Shown here one piece after another: positions 45,003 through 53,612 of a stretch of DNA of 64,000 bases. The first letter of the stretch is position 1. Every line of letters starts with the position of its first letter. The DNA lies in assembly GCA_963701855.1 (NCBI GenBank), contig CAVPBK010000006.1:640001-704000 (forward strand), read 5' to 3'. Source of the stretch: Nitrospirota bacterium. Lineage in GTDB: Bacteria > Nitrospirota > Nitrospiria > Nitrospirales > Nitrospiraceae. The notes under the pieces are model-generated. The model saw only the letters and a list, made by a program, of their open reading frames with translations. It searched no databases and had not been told where the DNA came from. Both the position numbers and the translations under genes were made by a program.

Positions 45003-45425
45003 CCCGCGTAATGACAGAGCCGAAGCCGCTTTCCGTGGGTATCCGCCCAATACTGATTGGACGAACTCCGCCAGGAGCTGTACGCTCGTCTATCTGTAGC
45101 GATCTCCAAACAAAGAACCACTGCTCTCGATCCCACTAGCAAGCGGGATTGAAGAGGTCAATCGGTAACTGGTGGTGTAATCCTCCCCCGCCTGCACTAG
45201 TCCCAGAGATCGTCCTGTTCGGCTCTTCATTCAAGCCCGCATCTCTGCACTGCTTGATTGTTGTGGACCGGAAGGACCCTTCGGTTGAAACTCCCTTGCG
45301 GTAGCAGATTGATGCTGGTCAGGCTCACGATATGGGATCTGGAACAGGAATGAGGACCTATCGGAGACTCAGGACATCCATCATGTCATGGTGATGTGAA
45401 CATTAGGAAATAAGTCCGCTATCAG

Positions 45426-46126
45426 TTAGAAGTGGTAGCCGACGCCAGCGGCAAAGATGTTCACATTATAATTATACGACAGGTCAAACCCATTAACCCC
45501 CAGGAAATTATTGTGGTCGATATTCGCGTAATTGTATTTCCACTCTCCGAACAGTGAGAGATTCGGATTGACACGATACCTCAGCCCAAGTTGCGTGTTC
45601 AGTCCCACATCCGTACTTGAACTGGAATCAGTACCATCCGAAATACGGGAAAAGAACACCCCGAGCCCCACTCCAGCGTAGGGCTCGAACGCCCCTGCTT
45701 GATACCTGACTAATACGACCAATGGAGTCCAGGTCAAAACCCGATTAGTCAACCCTTGTAGCGTCCCTGTTGTGCCTACTGTATTAGCAATAAGGGCGGG
45801 GGAACGAGGATCTAGCGTAACCTCTTGCTGCTTAATATGAGGCGTTGAATTGAATACTTCGGTTTCGACGCCTAGATTGAAGTTCTGCCATTTCAGCGAA
45901 TCAAAATAGTATCCTGCCTTGGCTCCATACATCAGGGAGTTCTGTAACACGAGGTCACTCAATCCTAAGGTCCCTCTCCCTGCACTTAATTCCAGGTTGC
46001 TAGCGTCTTGGGGAATGTTCGCACCCACTTGACCCGCGACATACATCTCCGCCTGTAGGGGGAGTCCAGACAGAACATACCCATAGCAACAGAACACACT
46101 CCGAGCGTATAGCGTAAGTGTCTCAT
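45426..46126 (-). CDS. Outer-membrane beta-barrel protein, paralog of 7532-8233; frameshift in the signal region
   Basis: AEMYVAGQ, GAKAGYYF, TPHI.Q, PYAGVG, GEWKYNYA, GYHF. ATG 46126 has an AGGAGG RBS but is out of frame by one base at the G5 tract 46058-46062. Confidence 0.8.
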
Positions 46127-46529
46127 CTCTCTCCTCCTAATGATCTCTCTCGAAAGAAAGCTGAAGCATCTTAAGAGAGAGAGTTAAGCAATTTATGTGC
46201 GTGGTTGGAACCAAGGCAGTTTCATTGAGAATGTCAATGGTGCGGCGTACCGATCGATGAAACAAACGAGAAGAATATGGTTCAGTGGAATCTAAAAGGG
46301 TACGTAGCAGGATCTATACTGATACAGACTGACCGTGGGGAAGGCTGTCAGATTGCGATGAAGAAAAATTGTGTTTGGGCGAGAGTTCAAATGATACTTG
46401 GAGCTGCTTCTCGGCACTTTGTGGGGGTCATGAGCTGGTCACTGCGGGCTATTGCGCGAAGTGTTGGAGGTGTCTACTGCGAGTGTGGCGCGGGGGTTAC
46501 GGTGAAGGTGGGACTTCGGCGGACTCGAC

Positions 46530-48305
46530 TCAGCAGCCTTTGAACTGCTGTGCCTGACACTGTTGCGCGAGTCGTTGGGCTTTTGCAACCTGTGCGGGAG
46601 TTAGTTGCTGGACGATAGCATCCCGACGTTGTGCGTACGTTATGTTCTTCCTGCCCTGTCTTAGAGATTGCTCAACCGCGAGGTTGTACCACATGTAAGC
46701 ACGCACCTTGTCCTGCTGCACACCGCGTCCATCGCGATACATATCGCCGAGTGAATCTTGCCCTCCCGCGTCTCCCTGCTCGGCAGATTTTCGTATCCAT
46801 TCCATCCCTTTTTTTTCGTCCTTCTGAACGCCCTTCCCATCAACGTAAAGATAGCCGAGGTTGTTCTGCGCATCCGAGGAGTTCTGGGCTGCGGCTTTTT
46901 CGTACCACTGCCGCGCCATCGCGTAATCCTGAGGCACGCCTTCTCCATTGTCATACAATACGCCGAGGTTGTACTGAGCGGCAGCATCCCCATGAACAGC
47001 GGCTTTCTCATACTTCTGCCATGCTATTGCGTAGTCCTGCGGCACGCCCTCTCCCAAGGCATACATCGTCCATAGAAGGACCTTCGCCTTCATGACCCCC
47101 TGGGCGGCGGCTTTCTCATACCATTGCCGTGCCATCGCGTAATCCTGCGGTACGCCCTGTCCCTTGACATACAGCGATCCGAGAAGGACCTGCGCGGTTG
47201 CATGTCCCTGGCTAGCGGCATCCTCCCACCACTGCCCTGCTGTCACGTAGTCCTGAGGAACACCTTGTCCCTTGCTATACAGCACCCCAAGGTTGAACTG
47301 CGCCTCCGCATAGCCTTGGGCTGCCGCTTGCTTGTACCATTGCCTGGCTATCATGTAGTCCTGTGGTACGCCCTTCCCGGAATAATACATCGTCCCCAGA
47401 TCGTACTGCGCCTTCGAGATGCCCTGGGCTGCCGCTTTCTCCCACCACTGTCGCGCCGTCTCGTAATCCTGCGGGACACCTTTCCCAAGGGCATAGAGCG
47501 ACCCAAGGTTGTACTGCGCCATTGCATCCTCCTGGGCTGCCGCTTTCTCAAACCATCCTCGCGCTTTCGCATAGTCTTGCGTGACACCCTGTCCAAAGGC
47601 ATACAGGGTCCCGAGGTGGTCCTGTGCCTCCGCGTCTCCCAGGGCTGCTCCCTTCTCCAACCATTGTCGCGCCGTCGGATAGTCTTGTTTGACACCCAAT
47701 CCGAAGTAATACAACCCCCCGAGGCGGAACAGTGCGCCCTCGTCCCCCTGGGCAGCAGCTTTTTCAAACCACTGCCGCGCTGTCGTATAGTCTTGTGGCA
47801 CACCCTGTCCGTCGCGATACAGCACCCCGAGATTGGACTGTGCCAACGCATTCCCCTGGGCTGCCGCTTTCTGGATCCACTTCGCCGCTTGGGCATAGTC
47901 CTGCGGCACACCCTTCCCCTTGGCATACAAAAACCCAAGGTGGTCCTGCGCCTCTGCATCCTCCTGGGCTGCCGCTTTTTCCCACCACTGCCGCGCTTTG
48001 ACATAGTCCTGCGGCACACCCTCTCCTTCGGCGAACAACAACCCAAGGGTAAACTGCGCCTTCGCGTAGCCCTGGGTTGCAGTTTTTTCAAACCATCCTC
48101 GCGCTTTCGCATAGTCTTGCGGCACACCCCGTCCAAGGTAATACAGTGCCCCGAGGGCGTGCTGCGCCAGCGCGTAGCCCTGGGCTGCCTGTGTTTTCAT
48201 CCTTTGAAGGTCTTCTGGTGAAACGTCGCTCGGTGGGGAACCTGACGCATGCCCAGAGGGGAGAACGAGTGCACTGAGAAGGACTATGACGAATAGGGCG
48301 CACAT
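46530..48305 (-). CDS. Secreted Sel1-like repeat protein (14 repeats)
   Basis: Signal peptide; 36-aa repeats AQxxLGxLYxxGxGVPQDYxxARxWxEKAAAQG; C-cap TPAQ...QQCQAQQFKGC. Confidence 0.93.
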   Translation of the reverse strand: MCALFVIVLLSALVLPSGHASGSPPSDVSPEDLQRMKTQAAQGYALAQHALGALYYLGRGVPQDYAKARGWFEKTATQGYAKAQFTLGLLFAEGEGVPQDYVKARQWWEKAAAQEDAEAQDHLGFLYAKGKGVPQDYAQAAKWIQKAAAQGNALAQSNLGVLYRDGQGVPQDYTTARQWFEKAAAQGDEGALFRLGGLYYFGLGVKQDYPTARQWLEKGAALGDAEAQDHLGTLYAFGQGVTQDYAKARGWFEKAAAQEDAMAQYNLGSLYALGKGVPQDYETARQWWEKAAAQGISKAQYDLGTMYYSGKGVPQDYMIARQWYKQAAAQGYAEAQFNLGVLYSKGQGVPQDYVTAGQWWEDAASQGHATAQVLLGSLYVKGQGVPQDYAMARQWYEKAAAQGVMKAKVLLWTMYALGEGVPQDYAIAWQKYEKAAVHGDAAAQYNLGVLYDNGEGVPQDYAMARQWYEKAAAQNSSDAQNNLGYLYVDGKGVQKDEKKGMEWIRKSAEQGDAGGQDSLGDMYRDGRGVQQDKVRAYMWYNLAVEQSLRQGRKNITYAQRRDAIVQQLTPAQVAKAQRLAQQCQAQQFKGC

Positions 48306-48441
48306 AAAACACTATCGCCCTAGTATCTTAGACCGTCAAGGATTAGCGGATTGTTCGCTTTGCTGAATAGATCATCAACAAGGAGGCTTGTGAGGTGTGG
48401 CTGCAACGGAGGAAGAGCGAAAGCAGCAGCATTAAAGTACC

Positions 48442-49347
48442 TCAGCAGCCCTTGAACTGCCTTGCTTGACACTGTTGCGAGAGTCGCTGGGCTTCTGCAA
48501 TCTGTGCGGGTGTCATGCGGCGTGCGACCACGTCTCGATTGTTTGGTGCAGGATTCTGCTCATCGTCCATCGAGTGTGCAGCTGCGAGGTTGTACCACAT
48601 GTATGCACGCACATAGTCCTGCGGCACGCCATGTCCGTTGTCATACATCCACCCGAGGTTGTTTTGCGCTTTCACGTAGCCCTGCGCGGCGGCTTTCTCC
48701 CACCACTGCCGCGCTGTCGCGTAATCCTGTGGCACACCCTGCCCGAAGTTATACAGCACCCCGAGGCTGTTCTGCGCCCTCGTGTGCCCCTGTGCAGCGG
48801 CTTTCTCGAACCACTGCCGCGCTGCCGCGTAGTCTTGCGACGTGCCCCGCCCGAAGTCATACAGCACCCCGAGACCGAATTGCGCATCTGCGTCCCCCTG
48901 GGCAGCCGCTTTTTCATACCATTCATGCGCTTTCGCATAGTCCTGTGGCACGCCTCGCCCCCTGTCATACTGCACTCCGAGTGAGACCTGCGCCGTCGCA
49001 TACCCCTGAGCAGCCGCTTTCTCGTACCACTGCCGTGCCGTCGTGTAATCTTTCGGCACGCCTTGTCCCTTGGCATAAAGCACACCAAGATTATTCTGTG
49101 CTTCCGCGTAACCTTGTACTGCGGCTTTCTCCCACCACTGCCGTGCTGCCGCATAGTCCTGTGGCACACCCTGTCCATTGTAATACAGCAACCCGAGGGT
49201 GGTCTGCGCTTCCGCGACACCCTGGACTGCCTGTGTTTGCAGCGTTTGTATGTCTTCTAATGAAGTGTCGATCGGTGGGGAAACAGTTGCACATCCAGAG
49301 GAGAGAATGAGTGCGATGAGGAGAATTATGACGGAAAGAGAACGCAT
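48442..49347 (-). CDS. Sel1-like repeat lipoprotein (6 repeats)
   Basis: MRSLSVIILLIALILSSGC lipobox-like; SLR repeats; C-cap QQCQARQFKGC. Confidence 0.92.
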   Translation of the reverse strand: MRSLSVIILLIALILSSGCATVSPPIDTSLEDIQTLQTQAVQGVAEAQTTLGLLYYNGQGVPQDYAAARQWWEKAAVQGYAEAQNNLGVLYAKGQGVPKDYTTARQWYEKAAAQGYATAQVSLGVQYDRGRGVPQDYAKAHEWYEKAAAQGDADAQFGLGVLYDFGRGTSQDYAAARQWFEKAAAQGHTRAQNSLGVLYNFGQGVPQDYATARQWWEKAAAQGYVKAQNNLGWMYDNGHGVPQDYVRAYMWYNLAAAHSMDDEQNPAPNNRDVVARRMTPAQIAEAQRLSQQCQARQFKGC

Positions 49348-49499
49348 GGGAGCGCAGTATGGGCGCGGACCTCTGAGAGCGTCAATGGACACAATGGGGG
49401 GCATGGTCTGGTCGCTATGGATGATTGCTAAGAGTGTCGGCGTGTCTACTGCGAGTGTGGCGCAGGGGTTGCGGTAAAGAGAGAGCGGTAACCCCCAAC

Positions 49500-49994
49500 T
49501 CAGCAGCCCTTGAACTTCCTTGACCGACACTGTTGTGCAAGTTGATTGGCTTCTGCAATCTGCGAGGGAGTCATGCGGCGTGCGACATCATCTCGATTTT
49601 CTACCGCTTGCTTCTGCTCGTCACCCGTCATGTCTGCGGCTGCAAGGTTCACCCACATATACGCCCGCACATCGTCCTGTGGTACGCCCAGTCCCGCGTA
49701 ATACATTTCCGCGAGGTTGTTCTGCGCGAGCGCGTGACCCTGAGCAGCGGCTTTCTCGTACCACTGACGCGCTTGCGAATAATCCTGCGGCACGCCTTGT
49801 CCATTGGCATACAGCATCCCGAGGTTGGTCTGCGCCTCCGCATTCCCTTGGGCTGCAAGCGATTGAAATGTTTTCAACGCAGTCGCGTAGTCACCGCGTT
49901 TATTTGCAGCCGTAGCATCTTCCAGTGGACCTGCCCACACCGTACCAGCAGTCAGCAAGAGTGCAGTACCTATAGAAGGTAAGAGTCGTGTCAT
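49500..49994 (-). CDS. Secreted Sel1-like repeat protein (2 full repeats)
   Basis: Signal peptide VWA-GPLED; SLR repeats; C-cap QQCRSRKFKGC. Confidence 0.92.
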   Translation of the reverse strand: MTRLLPSIGTALLLTAGTVWAGPLEDATAANKRGDYATALKTFQSLAAQGNAEAQTNLGMLYANGQGVPQDYSQARQWYEKAAAQGHALAQNNLAEMYYAGLGVPQDDVRAYMWVNLAAADMTGDEQKQAVENRDDVARRMTPSQIAEANQLAQQCRSRKFKGC

Positions 49995-50199
49995 TGTAAT
50001 GCCTTTGTAAGAGATCGTAGGAACTGAGGCAGTGTGCTCCGTTTGAAGGGGGCGGTCAAATGAAACTTGGAGCGGCTTCGCGGCACTTTGTGGAGGGGCA
50101 AGAGTTGGTCGCTACGGATGATTGCAAAGAGTGTTGGCGTGTTTATTGCGCGGGGTGGTGCGGGTACTGGGGTAAAGATGAGGCTTCGATGGAGCCTAC

Positions 50200-51261
50200 T
50201 CAGCATCCCGTGAGCCCCTGCGCCTGGCACTGTTGCGCGAGTCGCTGGGCTTCTGCAATCTGTGCGGGTGTCATGCGGCGTGTGAGTGCCCCATCTCGAT
50301 TGGTTGCTATGGACTTCTGCTTGTTACCCGTCGAGTGGGCGACTGCAAGTGTGTACCATATATATGCCCTCACATCGTCCTTCGGCACGCCGTCTCCAGT
50401 GGCATACATGAGCCCGAGGCTGAACTGTGCATCCGCGTCCCGCTTCGCTGCCGCTTTCTCGTACCACTTCGTCGCTTCCTCATAGTTCTGTGGCACGCCG
50501 AGCGCAAAGTGATACAGCTGCCCGAGCTTGAACTGCGCCCCAGCATAGCCCTGGGCTGCGGCTTTCTCGTACCACTGTCGCGCCTTCGCATAGTCCTGCG
50601 GCACGCTATATCCCTGGGCATATCGCAATGCGAGGCTGAACTGCGCATCCGCGTTCCCCTGAGCTGCCGCTTTCTCGTACCACTTCGTCGCTTCCGTGTA
50701 ATTCCGTGGGACGCCGTCTCCCTTTTCATACAGCGAACCGAGGTAGAACTGCGCATTCGTGTTCCCTTGCGCCGCCGCTTTCTCGTACCATCCCCGCGCA
50801 TCCGCGCTGCCCTGGGCTGCCGCTTTCTCATACCACTGTCGCGCCTTCGGGAAATCTTGCGGGACGCCCTGTCCATGGGCATACATTTCACCAAGGATGT
50901 ACGACGCATTCGCTCTTCCCTGCGCGGCGGCTTTTTCGTACCACTCTCGTGCCATTATGTAATCCTGAGGCACCCCATGTCCATTGGCATAGAGCAGACC
51001 GAGGTTAAACTGTGCTGCCGCGTGATTCTGTGCGGCGGCTTGTTCGTACCACTGCCGCGCGACCACATAATCCTGGGGCACCCCATCCCCGAGGTCATAC
51101 AGTAGCCCGAGGTTGTTCTGCGCCAATGCGTTGCCTTGGGCTGCCCGTGTGCGCAGCATTTGCAGTTCATCTGCTGAAATGTTGATCGGTGGGGAAGCTG
51201 ACGCATATCCAGAGGAGAAAAGAAATGCAGCCAAAATCGTTATGGCGGAGAGGACGCGCAT
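50200..51261 (-). CDS. Secreted Sel1-like repeat protein (7 repeats plus 1 internally deleted)
   Basis: MRVLSAITILAAFLFSSGYASA signal; SLR repeats; C-cap QQCQAQGLTGC. Confidence 0.92.
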   Translation of the reverse strand: MRVLSAITILAAFLFSSGYASASPPINISADELQMLRTRAAQGNALAQNNLGLLYDLGDGVPQDYVVARQWYEQAAAQNHAAAQFNLGLLYANGHGVPQDYIMAREWYEKAAAQGRANASYILGEMYAHGQGVPQDFPKARQWYEKAAAQGSADARGWYEKAAAQGNTNAQFYLGSLYEKGDGVPRNYTEATKWYEKAAAQGNADAQFSLALRYAQGYSVPQDYAKARQWYEKAAAQGYAGAQFKLGQLYHFALGVPQNYEEATKWYEKAAAKRDADAQFSLGLMYATGDGVPKDDVRAYIWYTLAVAHSTGNKQKSIATNRDGALTRRMTPAQIAEAQRLAQQCQAQGLTGC

Positions 51262-51415
51262 GGGAACGCAGTATGGGGGCGGAACCCAGAGACCGTCAAT
51301 GACACAATCAGGGGGCATGGGATGGTCGTTATGGGCGCTTGCGAAGAGTGTCGGCGTGTCTACTGGGAGTGCGGCGCAGGCGGTGCGGTAAAAATGAGAT
51401 TTCGGCGGACCTTTC

Positions 51416-52432
51416 TCAGCAACCTTTGAACTGCCGTGCCTCACACTGTTGCACGAGTCGCTGGGCTTCTGCTATCTCCCCTGGAGTCAGCCTGCGGGCG
51501 ACAATATCTAGATTTTCTGCTGCTAATTTCTGGTCCTCACCCATCGAGTGAGCTACTGAAAGACTCCACCACATGTATGCCCGCACATAGTTCCGCTGCA
51601 CGCCCCGCCCTAAGCCGTACAGCGTCCCGAGGTTGTTCTGCGCCTTCGCATCCCCCTGCGCGGCGGCTTTCTCAAACCACTGCCTCGCCTCGACGTAATT
51701 CTGTGGCACCCCGTGTCCATCGAGATACAGATTCCCGAGCATTCGCTGCCCCTCTGCGCCCCCCTGGGCTGCCGCTTTCTCATACCATCCTCGTGCTTTC
51801 GCATAGTCCTGCGGCACGCCATTCCCGCCAGATGAATAGATCTCCCCGAGGTTGACCTGCGCTGACGCGATGCCCTGGGCTGCCGACTTCTCGTACCACT
51901 TCGTCGCTTGGGCAAAGTCCTGTGGGACGCCGTGTCCCTGGACATATAGACCCCCGAGGTTGTGCTGTGCCATCGGATGTCCCTGGGCTGCCGCTTTTTC
52001 TAACCATAGCTTCGATTGTCCGTAATCCCGCTGAACGCCATATCCCTTGTAGTGCAGGACTGCGAGGAAGAATTGCGCCTCTGCGTCCCCCTGAGCTGCC
52101 GCTTTCTCATACCATCCTCGTGCTTTCGTATAGTCCTTCGGCACGCCTTCTCCAAAGACATAGAGCGTAGCAAGTTTGAACTGTGCCTTTGGATTGCCTC
52201 GGGCTGCTGCTTTCCCAAACCACACCCGTGCCTTGGCATAGTCCTGCGGGACACCACCTCCTTCGTAATACAGCGACCCGAGCTTGACCTGTGCCTCCGC
52301 ATTCCCTCGGACTGCCTGTGTTTGTAGTGCTCGTAAGCCTTTTGCTGAAATGTCGCTCGGCGGGGAGCCTAACGCATACCCAGAGGGGAGAACGAATGCA
52401 GCGAGGAGAATCATGACGAATACGGCACGCAT
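51416..52432 (-). CDS. Secreted Sel1-like repeat protein (7 repeats)
   Basis: Signal peptide; SLR repeats; C-cap QQCEARQFKGC. Confidence 0.92.
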   Translation of the reverse strand: MRAVFVMILLAAFVLPSGYALGSPPSDISAKGLRALQTQAVRGNAEAQVKLGSLYYEGGGVPQDYAKARVWFGKAAARGNPKAQFKLATLYVFGEGVPKDYTKARGWYEKAAAQGDAEAQFFLAVLHYKGYGVQRDYGQSKLWLEKAAAQGHPMAQHNLGGLYVQGHGVPQDFAQATKWYEKSAAQGIASAQVNLGEIYSSGGNGVPQDYAKARGWYEKAAAQGGAEGQRMLGNLYLDGHGVPQNYVEARQWFEKAAAQGDAKAQNNLGTLYGLGRGVQRNYVRAYMWWSLSVAHSMGEDQKLAAENLDIVARRLTPGEIAEAQRLVQQCEARQFKGC

Positions 52433-52805
52433 AAACCACTTTCGCCCTAGTGCCTTGGACCGTCAAGGAATAACGGATTGTTCGCATTGCTGAGTAGATA
52501 CTCAAGCAGAAAACTATGACGTTGCTGTGGGTTCGAGTCGTGTCCTTCCCCACCAGAATAGTGCCCTGTTCGCAGCAGCAAGCTGTCTAAATCATCTACT
52601 GAAGTCTGTCAGAGATAGACCTCGCGTTGGCGATTGGAGCGGCGCGTAGAGGCTCTGCGAAGGGGCTTGAGGATACTGTGCGGTGTGGCAAATGCTAAAG
52701 TATTAGTCAGGACGGGAACGGTGAGAATAATGAATGAGAGTGACACACTCGTTACACACTTACTTTTTATAAATACAAGTCATTGAAATGTAACTTACAA
52801 TATGC

Positions 52806-53612
52806 CTATGCTTTTAGTCCTAACACATCCATCATGTCATACAGGCCTGGTGGCTGCCGAACCACCCATCGAGCGGCACGCAGGGCGCCTCCCGCGAAGG
52901 TATCTCGGCTACTCGCTCGATGCGTCACTTCGATACGTTCACCCATTCCACCGAAGAGGATCGTGTGGTCGCCGACAATGTCTCCGGCACGGATCGTTTG
53001 AATCCCGATCTCACCCTTCTTTCGTTCCCCGATAAGACCTTTTCTGGCATAGACGCCGACCTGATCCAGATCGCGACTCACGGCTTTCGCCAAGACCTCC
53101 GCAATCTTGAGCGCCGTCCCGCTCGGGGCATCTTTTTTTAGGCGATGATGGGCTTCAATCACTTCAATGTCGTAGTCGTCCCCCAGCGTTTTCGCCATCT
53201 CACTAATGACCTTATAGATCAGATTGATACCCACGCTCATGTTGGGGGACAACACGCAGGGAACTTGGCAGGCCAGCGATTTCAGCTCTTCGAGCTGAGG
53301 AGTGGAAAACCCCGTCGTGCCGATTACCATGGCTCGCCGATATTGCGCCGCCGTGCGTAAATGATCCAGGGTCGCTTCAGGAGCGGAGAAGTCGACAACC
53401 ACTTCGCCTCTGTCGAGGAGCGCCGCGAAATCATCGGTGATCGAAATGCCTGCGCGGCCACAGCCCGCTGTTTCCCCGGCATCGTCACCCACGGCGTGAT
53501 GACCCTTCCCTTCAATGGCACCGGTCAACATCAGGGTGGTCGAGTCTTTGATAAGCGCAACCAGACGACAGCCCATGCGACCGGCTGCCCCTGCGACAAT
53601 GACGTTGATCAT
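52806..53612 (-). CDS. dapB: 4-hydroxy-tetrahydrodipicolinate reductase
   Basis: GAAGRMG, GTTG, EAHHRLKKDAPSGTAL, GLYDM.DVL. Confidence 0.96.
   Translation of the reverse strand: MINVIVAGAAGRMGCRLVALIKDSTTLMLTGAIEGKGHHAVGDDAGETAGCGRAGISITDDFAALLDRGEVVVDFSAPEATLDHLRTAAQYRRAMVIGTTGFSTPQLEELKSLACQVPCVLSPNMSVGINLIYKVISEMAKTLGDDYDIEVIEAHHRLKKDAPSGTALKIAEVLAKAVSRDLDQVGVYARKGLIGERKKGEIGIQTIRAGDIVGDHTILFGGMGERIEVTHRASSRDTFAGGALRAARWVVRQPPGLYDMMDVLGLKA

Follow-up and report, generated by a model that had tools for sequence, protein, structure and literature searches.

Decayed integrative elements at the 3′ ends of protein-coding genes have been described in streptococci as cis-mobilizable elements (CIMEs), which measure 1.2-13 kb and occupy the 3′ ends of rpmG, rpsI, fda and rplL, according to PMC7563491. 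For additive genomic islands, direct repeats of 16-20 bp, displaced gene fragments and fast decay of mobility genes are standard (PMC6917214), while icd is a known protein-gene hotspot in Escherichia (PMC9580842). The stretch analysed here, hereafter the window, comprises 64,000 nucleotides (nt) of a Nitrospirota genome (GCA_963701855.1, contig CAVPBK010000006.1, positions 640,001-704,000) and contains a 7.4-kb islet in the last codons of dapB. In the favoured explanation, to which we assign a probability of about 0.8, this islet is an immobilised remnant of a small tyrosine-integrase element, which inserted into these codons and whose integrase end was later deleted. The e14-type elements restore the 3′ end of icd; the target considered here, dapB, is an essential gene for lysine and cell-wall precursor synthesis.

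The islet shares with CIMEs its location at the 3′ end of a protein gene, a content of cargo only, the lack of recombination genes and the presence of flanking att repeats, as judged from PMC7563491. CIMEs are there derived from integrative and conjugative elements (ICEs) or integrative and mobilizable elements (IMEs); they keep att sites that are usable for accretion-mobilisation, whereas the far end of the islet consists of a core only, it has no tandem partner, and its parent (with integrase, resolvase and possible Rep) has no identified relaxase. The dapB islet is best described as a CIME-like remnant, and its inclusion among CIMEs would be tentative, since the far arm is gone and the parent is only a possible ICE or IME. 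With the Islander/TIGER-type islands, as represented by the icd locus, it has in common short direct repeats at a core gene, a displaced fragment and a hotspot that is reused by mosaic-ended elements (PMC6917214 and PMC9580842), yet it differs in its target gene and in lacking an integrase in the window copy, so that integrase-anchored tools would miss it. An intact element at dapB in genome G030 exhibits the same core, a GLK-type tail, an integration host factor (IHF)-like site at +50, arm repeats and a post-arm segment (75-78% nt identity) but, unlike the islet, it has a complete far arm and encodes an integrase, a resolvase, a ribbon-helix-helix (RHH) protein and possibly a Rep, while sharing no cargo with the window; the integrase relatives in G096 and G244, also unlike the islet, sit at other genes. 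No integrase of the islet's own lies in the window, while the G030 element has one at the shared core; the islet is probably a remnant of a tyrosine-integrase island and not a working member.

In the literature searched, dapB was not found as an integration target, although Islander/TIGER tables and bioRxiv supplements may list it; the supplement of PMC12884075 contains no dapB, and no related paper on Nitrospira Sel1 genomic islands was found in the same literature. As an insertion site, dapB is apparently unreported, while the islet itself is of an ordinary kind and its mechanism class is known.

The direct repeat and the empty site

In what follows, G000 is the genome holding the window and C6 the contig, L-numbers denote individual loci or metagenome stretches, and X-numbers denote sequencing runs. 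A previous reading of the window from its sequence only (the sequence-only reading) had proposed that the islet is bounded by a direct repeat. Both copies of this 16-mer, ACATCCATCATGTCAT, were recovered, at 45374-45389 and 52825-52840 (7,451 bp apart), and they represent the sole exact pair in the 4.3-Mb genome, where six further sites were found, each with two mismatches; the chance of a given 16-mer recurring within 20 kb is ~2e-6. The two versions of the gene end that had been read at these copies were likewise borne out: dapB itself terminates in DMMDVLGLKA-stop, while the left copy reads DMMDVLSLR-stop on the minus strand (45387-45358). The dapB frame is kept open through to the GLKA-stop, i.e., the target gene is reconstituted by element DNA. 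The features of dapB and of the two ends (aa, amino acids; ORF, open reading frame; OMP, outer-membrane protein) are as follows.

52806-53612, minus strand: dapB (4-hydroxy-tetrahydrodipicolinate reductase), the target gene, 268 aa, ending DMMDVLGLKA-stop (ORF list; Pfam DapB_N, E 1e-36, and DapB_C, E 1e-45)
52825-52840, minus strand: dapB-side core, attL-type crossover region of 16 bp, 14 bp of which are common with both cores of the G030 element (repeat scan and G030 comparison)
52806-52824, minus strand: replacement dapB 3′ end from the element, V-L-G-L-K-A-stop; GLK-type tail in 7/7 occupied genomes
52776-52788, minus strand: IHF-like site TTTCAATGACTTG, a putative IHF binding site with one mismatch to the consensus, exactly 50 bp from the core (motif scan)
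52741-52761, minus strand: arm-type direct repeats GTGTGTAAC / GTGTGTCAC (GTGTAAC-type), kept at +79 to +89 in 12 aligned alleles
52501-52739, minus strand: non-coding post-arm segment, which recurs in the intact G030 element and in islets elsewhere (matches of 73-83% identity in G015, G012, G030 and G025)
45374-45389, minus strand: far core (attR-type), arm-less, with the OMP stop codon 36 bp off (repeat scan and end comparison)
45358-45373, minus strand: original dapB tail in its displaced position, L-S-L-R-stop; the host flank behind it is 96.9% identical over 1.5 kb to the post-dapB sequence of G015

The GC content of the island (55.7%) is close to that of the window (56.7%), the only AT-rich part being the ~85 bp that adjoin dapB (31.8% GC).

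An empty site, predicted to consist of a DMMDVLSLR-like tail followed by the left-flank sequence, was found in G015, where dapB ends in DMMDVLSLR-stop and continues directly into the window's left flank. G015 is the sister of G000 on the dapB tree (support 100/100); the DapB proteins of the two are 98% identical, and the flanks are 96% identical on both sides (96.9% over 1.5 kb for the left flank). A native dapB tail is present in 27 of the 29 closest relatives (19 SLR, 4 NLR, 2 GLR, 1 DLR and 1 GLQ), and GLK in the other two. The sequence-only reading had named a GLKA tail not followed by the left-flank sequence in cargo-less relatives and clade-wide vertical inheritance of the cargo as observations at odds with an insertion, neither of which holds.

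Intact, integrase-less and empty dapB loci among relatives

A tyrosine integrase beside dapB, for which a search of relatives had been advised, was located in G030, where the two cores, of which 14 bp are shared with those of the window, enclose an insert of 6,088 bp. The integrase (415 aa; phrog_1, E 6e-14; PF00589, E 2e-4, under the cut-off) starts ~110 bp inside the far core, reads inward and is followed by a serine resolvase (PF00239, E 9e-42). The element also encodes an RHH protein and a 208-aa ORF without a Pfam or PHROG match, whose only Atlas lead, a cluster with 39% REP_ORF2-G2P members (score 0.95), points to a possible rolling-circle Rep, while no relaxase was identified in the element. 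In G030, TAAGACA on the integrase side and TGTGTTA on the dapB side enclose the 7 bp TGATGGA and form a near-perfect inverted pair of the kind typical of tyrosine integrases. Together, the empty site of G015 and the integrase element of G030 support the earlier view that the islet boundaries are of attL/attR type and that they lie in a protein-coding gene whose 3′ end has been replaced. The likely integrase and its 14-bp core constitute a candidate site-specific integration tool for Nitrospira.

L066 represents the same element as G030, and queries with the G030 integrase returned only itself in the genome contig set (1/39 candidate stretches) and no match in viral contigs (0/13). Related integrases were detected in 6 of 371 family genomes and, besides that of G030, none was seen at dapB. 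The G096 integrase, 67% identical to that of G030, sits at another protein-coding gene (L056:1200-1500, on G096:C4), and since it has the same arm style there, the integrase family switches target. In G244, an integrase of 36% and a resolvase of 82% identity to those of G030 form an intact element at the 5′ end of ybgC. A second islet of this family without an integrase lies outside the window in G000, also at the ybgC 5′ end (G000:C6:1,229,900-1,232,300). It holds genes for small exported proteins, part of a Sel1 gene and two spacer copies; this islet is 96.4% identical in G015 and therefore vertically inherited.

The combination of replacement tail and arm pattern was found in 7 of 85 genus genomes and in none of 286 other family genomes, and a similar combination in 13 metagenome stretches. 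On a dapB tree of 47 rows, constructed without G100, G061 (represented by L059, 99.5% identical) and L058 (which has no dapB), the 12 occupied rows need 10 changes, as compared to a shuffled mean of 10.9. G000, G103, L067 and G030 each stand beside empty relatives with starred support, and the displaced tail in each of the four resembles the dapB end of its own empty relatives. Since the occupied genomes are scattered over this tree, repeated independent insertion at dapB would be the simplest reading, adding dapB to the recurrent integration hotspots. The occupied alleles can be arranged in a decay series which begins with the intact G030 element, proceeds through alleles having both cores and no integrase (G000, 7.4 kb; G103, 2.5 kb; L067, 1.0 kb) and ends with those in which the far core and 200-375 bp of flank are gone (G100, L062, G061/L059 and L061). 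A full decay series is thereby available at one site, and the integrase-less lineages, which account for six of the seven fully visible allele lineages at dapB, would escape integrase-anchored island finders.

Homology-facilitated illegitimate recombination, in which a donor was anchored in dapB and its far end joined at a microhomology, would likewise produce a block without a recombinase; it would fit the mosaic cargo, in which copies of Sel1-repeat genes 2 and 3 with 91-92% identity occur elsewhere and the ends of neighbours are 47-79% alike, as well as the three lineages whose far junctions lie 200-375 bp into the flank, and could spread already-decayed islets between lineages. Such a joint could, however, fall anywhere in the 800-bp dapB gene, whereas the duplication starts at the 14-16 bp core of the integrase-bearing element in all three integrase-less alleles that retain the displaced tail; moreover, G000 and G015 are 96% identical in dapB and in both flanks, which is typical of the genome, and no divergent donor tract is seen. 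We regard this origin as unlikely.

Two further observations concern variation at the dapB end. Contigs C379 and C300 of G076 (L042 and L043), which belong to one metagenome-assembled genome, between them hold an occupied and an empty dapB end with identical upstream sequence, which suggests a population mixed for the element. A near-identical dapB end is present in L057, L058, L059, L061 and L064 with four different alleles behind it, L058 and L061 being cut at the same point just ahead of the arm repeats.

Arms, integrase and the probable route to the present islet

The IHF-like site at +50 is present in 18 of the 20 occupied alleles scanned, against a background of ~0.06 sites per 120 bp, using a consensus that we take to be that of IHF. 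The far end of G030 displays two perfect IHF-like sites and three GTGTAAC-type heptamers (up to one mismatch) beside the integrase; unlike this integrase-flanking end, the far end of the window has neither GTGTAAC-type repeats nor IHF-like sites. A comparison of G000, G030, G103 and L067 gave a corresponding result: their dapB-side 110 bp are mutually similar, with all six pairs scoring above all 300 shuffles, whereas none of the six pairs of far-side 110 bp is related, and a far-side IHF-like site at the G030 spacing is kept in L067 only among G000, G103 and L067. The window retains one full predicted arm, on the dapB side, and one bare core, on the far side. Part of the post-arm segment recurs in the same genome at C6:1,232,038-1,232,124, and this segment is a candidate cis site (res, oriT or promoter), for which a preprint on oriT-only islands offers a possible role (10.64898/2026.01.13.699239). 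Tandem accretion in the window is not supported: the sole internal site has three mismatches to the 14-mer, and neither an internal arm nor a tandem element was found.

Family scans identified no recombination or mobilisation genes in the islet, and the genome's 22 PF00589 matches all lie outside the window. Neither tblastn (E 1e-3) nor a genome search returned a homologue of the G030 integrase from the window's genome, and a three-member integrase hidden Markov model run against all six frames of the genome gave a best match of E 1e-6, which covers the catalytic domain only of a 290-aa frame. As the genome is 97% complete in 15 contigs, an integrase copy may be missing from the assembly. Where the sequence-only reading had left the integrase as either lost or acting in trans, loss is now favoured on account of the absence of a family integrase in the genome, the far end without arm repeats or IHF-like sites, and the decay series, while action in trans is not supported. 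New with respect to that reading are the conserved dapB-side arm, the recurrent use of the site and the broken OMP gene.

The island was also compared with contigs of four soil runs from four studies, four of the 20 runs with a match, of which the best-matching run may be the window's own source; no RNA run is among those listed, which bears neither for nor against expression. Parts of the island are matched at 99% or more by contigs of the four runs; two contigs bridge the dapB junction (X1, 52099-53122; X3, 52425-52899), while no piece among the matches listed bridges the left junction. Neither a 45389-to-52825 joint nor an excision joint is among the joints listed for the four runs, though contigs drop rare forms.

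These data bear on the proposal that the islet is a non-autonomous element which never had an integrase and was moved in trans by one of the G030 type. Consistent with such movement are three independent integrase-less alleles with both cores (G000, G103 and L067), none with integrase fragments, the good conservation of the dapB-side arm, and the resemblance of G000 to G103, which share an OMP gene (81% nt) and a Sel1 gene (90% nt) and which both read AT just left of the far core. The far sides of the three alleles are, however, unrelated to each other and to G030 and lack GTGTAAC repeats, neither the gene order nor the junction of G000 is that of G103, the integrase searches and the listed joints of the four runs yielded nothing beyond what is stated above, and mobilisation in trans therefore appears improbable.

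By the favoured remnant explanation, an integrase, assisted by IHF bending at +50 and by binding to the GTGTAAC arms, would have crossed attP with attB inside the D-M-M-D-V codons. The element would have supplied the GLK(A)-stop, such that dapB stayed intact and the LSLR-stop was pushed 7.4 kb away; a deletion reaching to ~23 bp from the core would then have taken the integrase and the resolvase together with the arm beside them, leaving a remnant that would no longer excise by itself. This explanation is supported by the empty site of G015, the repeated occupation of the 14-16 bp core, the intact G030 element, and a dapB-side arm that is kept without its far counterpart.

Several points weigh against it. 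The sole intact dapB element (G030/L066) has none of the window's cargo genes, so that a direct parent was not seen, and the insertion postdates, or was cleanly lost after, a DNA divergence of ~4% from G015, which leaves little time for decay. The dapB tree alone does not discriminate between gain and loss, and the metagenome rows in it were picked for being occupied. Excision, IHF binding and arm binding are predictions. Finally, no integrase, resolvase or Rep fragments were detected in any of the seven integrase-less alleles at E 0.05, and G000, G103 and L067 break within ~23-55 bp of the far core; plain loss would leave both this absence and the clustering of breakpoints unexplained.

Because none of the seven alleles keeps fragments and the breaks cluster near the far core, a self-amputation may be envisaged, in which illegitimate recombination, driven by the integrase at the far core, takes out the whole integrase-resolvase module in a single step. 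Fixed landing pads (dapB, ybgC and other gene ends) would remain, which swap promoter-bearing exported-protein cassettes via the 130-190 bp spacer described below. We hold this scheme to be conceivable yet doubtful; if true, Nitrospira has an integron-like cassette system without an integron integrase.

Cargo genes and spacers

The cargo proposed in the sequence-only reading, namely five Sel1-repeat ORFs and one outer-membrane beta-barrel ORF, is indeed located between the cores, all on the minus strand, with the refinement that the OMP gene is frameshifted.

51416-52432, minus strand: Sel1-repeat gene 1, 338 aa, signal-peptide-like N terminus (PF08238, 7 stretches; best outside match 67-72% nt)
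50200-51261, minus strand: Sel1-repeat gene 2, 353 aa, with a sigma70-like promoter of its own that ends 9 nt ahead of the ATG (PF08238, 7 stretches; promoter scan)
49500-49994, minus strand: Sel1-repeat gene 3, 164 aa (PF08238, 2 stretches)
48442-49347, minus strand: Sel1-repeat gene 4, 301 aa, own sigma70-like promoter (PF08238, 6 stretches; promoter scan)
46530-48305, minus strand: Sel1-repeat gene 5, 591 aa, own sigma70-like promoter, strain-variable repeat number (PF08238, 13 stretches; promoter scan; X5 contig)
45426-46126, minus strand: outer-membrane beta-barrel gene, frameshifted near 46066 (PF13505, E 1e-13)
46341-46530 (minus strand), 49345-49500, 50011-50200 and 51261-51416: spacer, an intergenic element of 130-190 bp between cargo genes, four copies (nhmmer)

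Going by their family, the Sel1 proteins are presumably exported protein-binding scaffolds. The promoter scan placed a sigma70-like site 6-9 nt ahead of the ATG in three of the five Sel1 genes, a position which suggests that these may be leaderless, self-contained units. For Sel1-repeat gene 2, a copy at a different islet of G015 has 92% nt identity and one in G087 has 90%, while gene 3 matches a gene of another dapB islet (L065) at 91% nt and one of a ybgC islet at 88%. A recent in-place tandem duplication of the five genes was rejected, as their 150-nt ends are only 47-79% alike while two of them have copies of 91-92% identity elsewhere. Strain variation is nevertheless apparent within gene 5, where one X5 contig skips 540 bp, corresponding to five 108-bp Sel1 units. 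The OMP frameshift sits in the signal peptide, with the true ATG at 46126 and the break near 46066, as established by the frame of the G103 homologue (81% nt); indel alleles at 46066 (X1, X2 and X3) and 45470 (X1 and X5) indicate several OMP alleles.

The spacer occurs six times in the genome, four times in the dapB islet and twice in the ybgC islet (nhmmer), and 36 of the 85 genomes of the genus have a match to it. A cassette array of integron type, with the spacer as recombination site, would accord with this distribution, with the unrelated genes that the spacer parts (Sel1, OMP and small exported proteins), and with an array order that differs between genomes. The best integron-integrase score in the genome is, however, 80.8 bits, short of the cut-off of 265, the spacer copies form no consistent attC-like hairpin (z below -2 in 2/18 copies, on either strand), and three of the five Sel1 genes have a promoter-like site of their own, unlike promoterless cassettes. 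With IntI and attC hairpins absent and promoters present, such an array was rejected as highly unlikely. The opposite strand of several spacer copies reads like a helix-turn-helix peptide. A relic of a resolvase helix-turn-helix is not supported, since none of four peptides had a Pfam match, no intact gene was found and none of 30 spacer-bearing loci has a resolvase. For a structured RNA, Rfam gave two chance-level matches only.

The cargo order in G103 is OMP then Sel1, whereas that in the window is Sel1 genes then OMP. Other dapB alleles carry small exported proteins, helicase/restriction fragments or a type I-E-like CRISPR-Cas operon, as named by reading their ORFs. The cargo is likely drawn from a pool of exported-protein genes common to Nitrospira islets, and its composition would keep shifting as Sel1 repeats and shared spacers recombine homologously. 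The dapB and other islet loci show where the genus keeps variable Sel1, exported-protein, restriction and CRISPR genes. In L064:915-9361, a dapB allele with the same arm, the ORFs, named by their sequences, read as a putative complete type I-E CRISPR-Cas operon, from cas3 to cas2.

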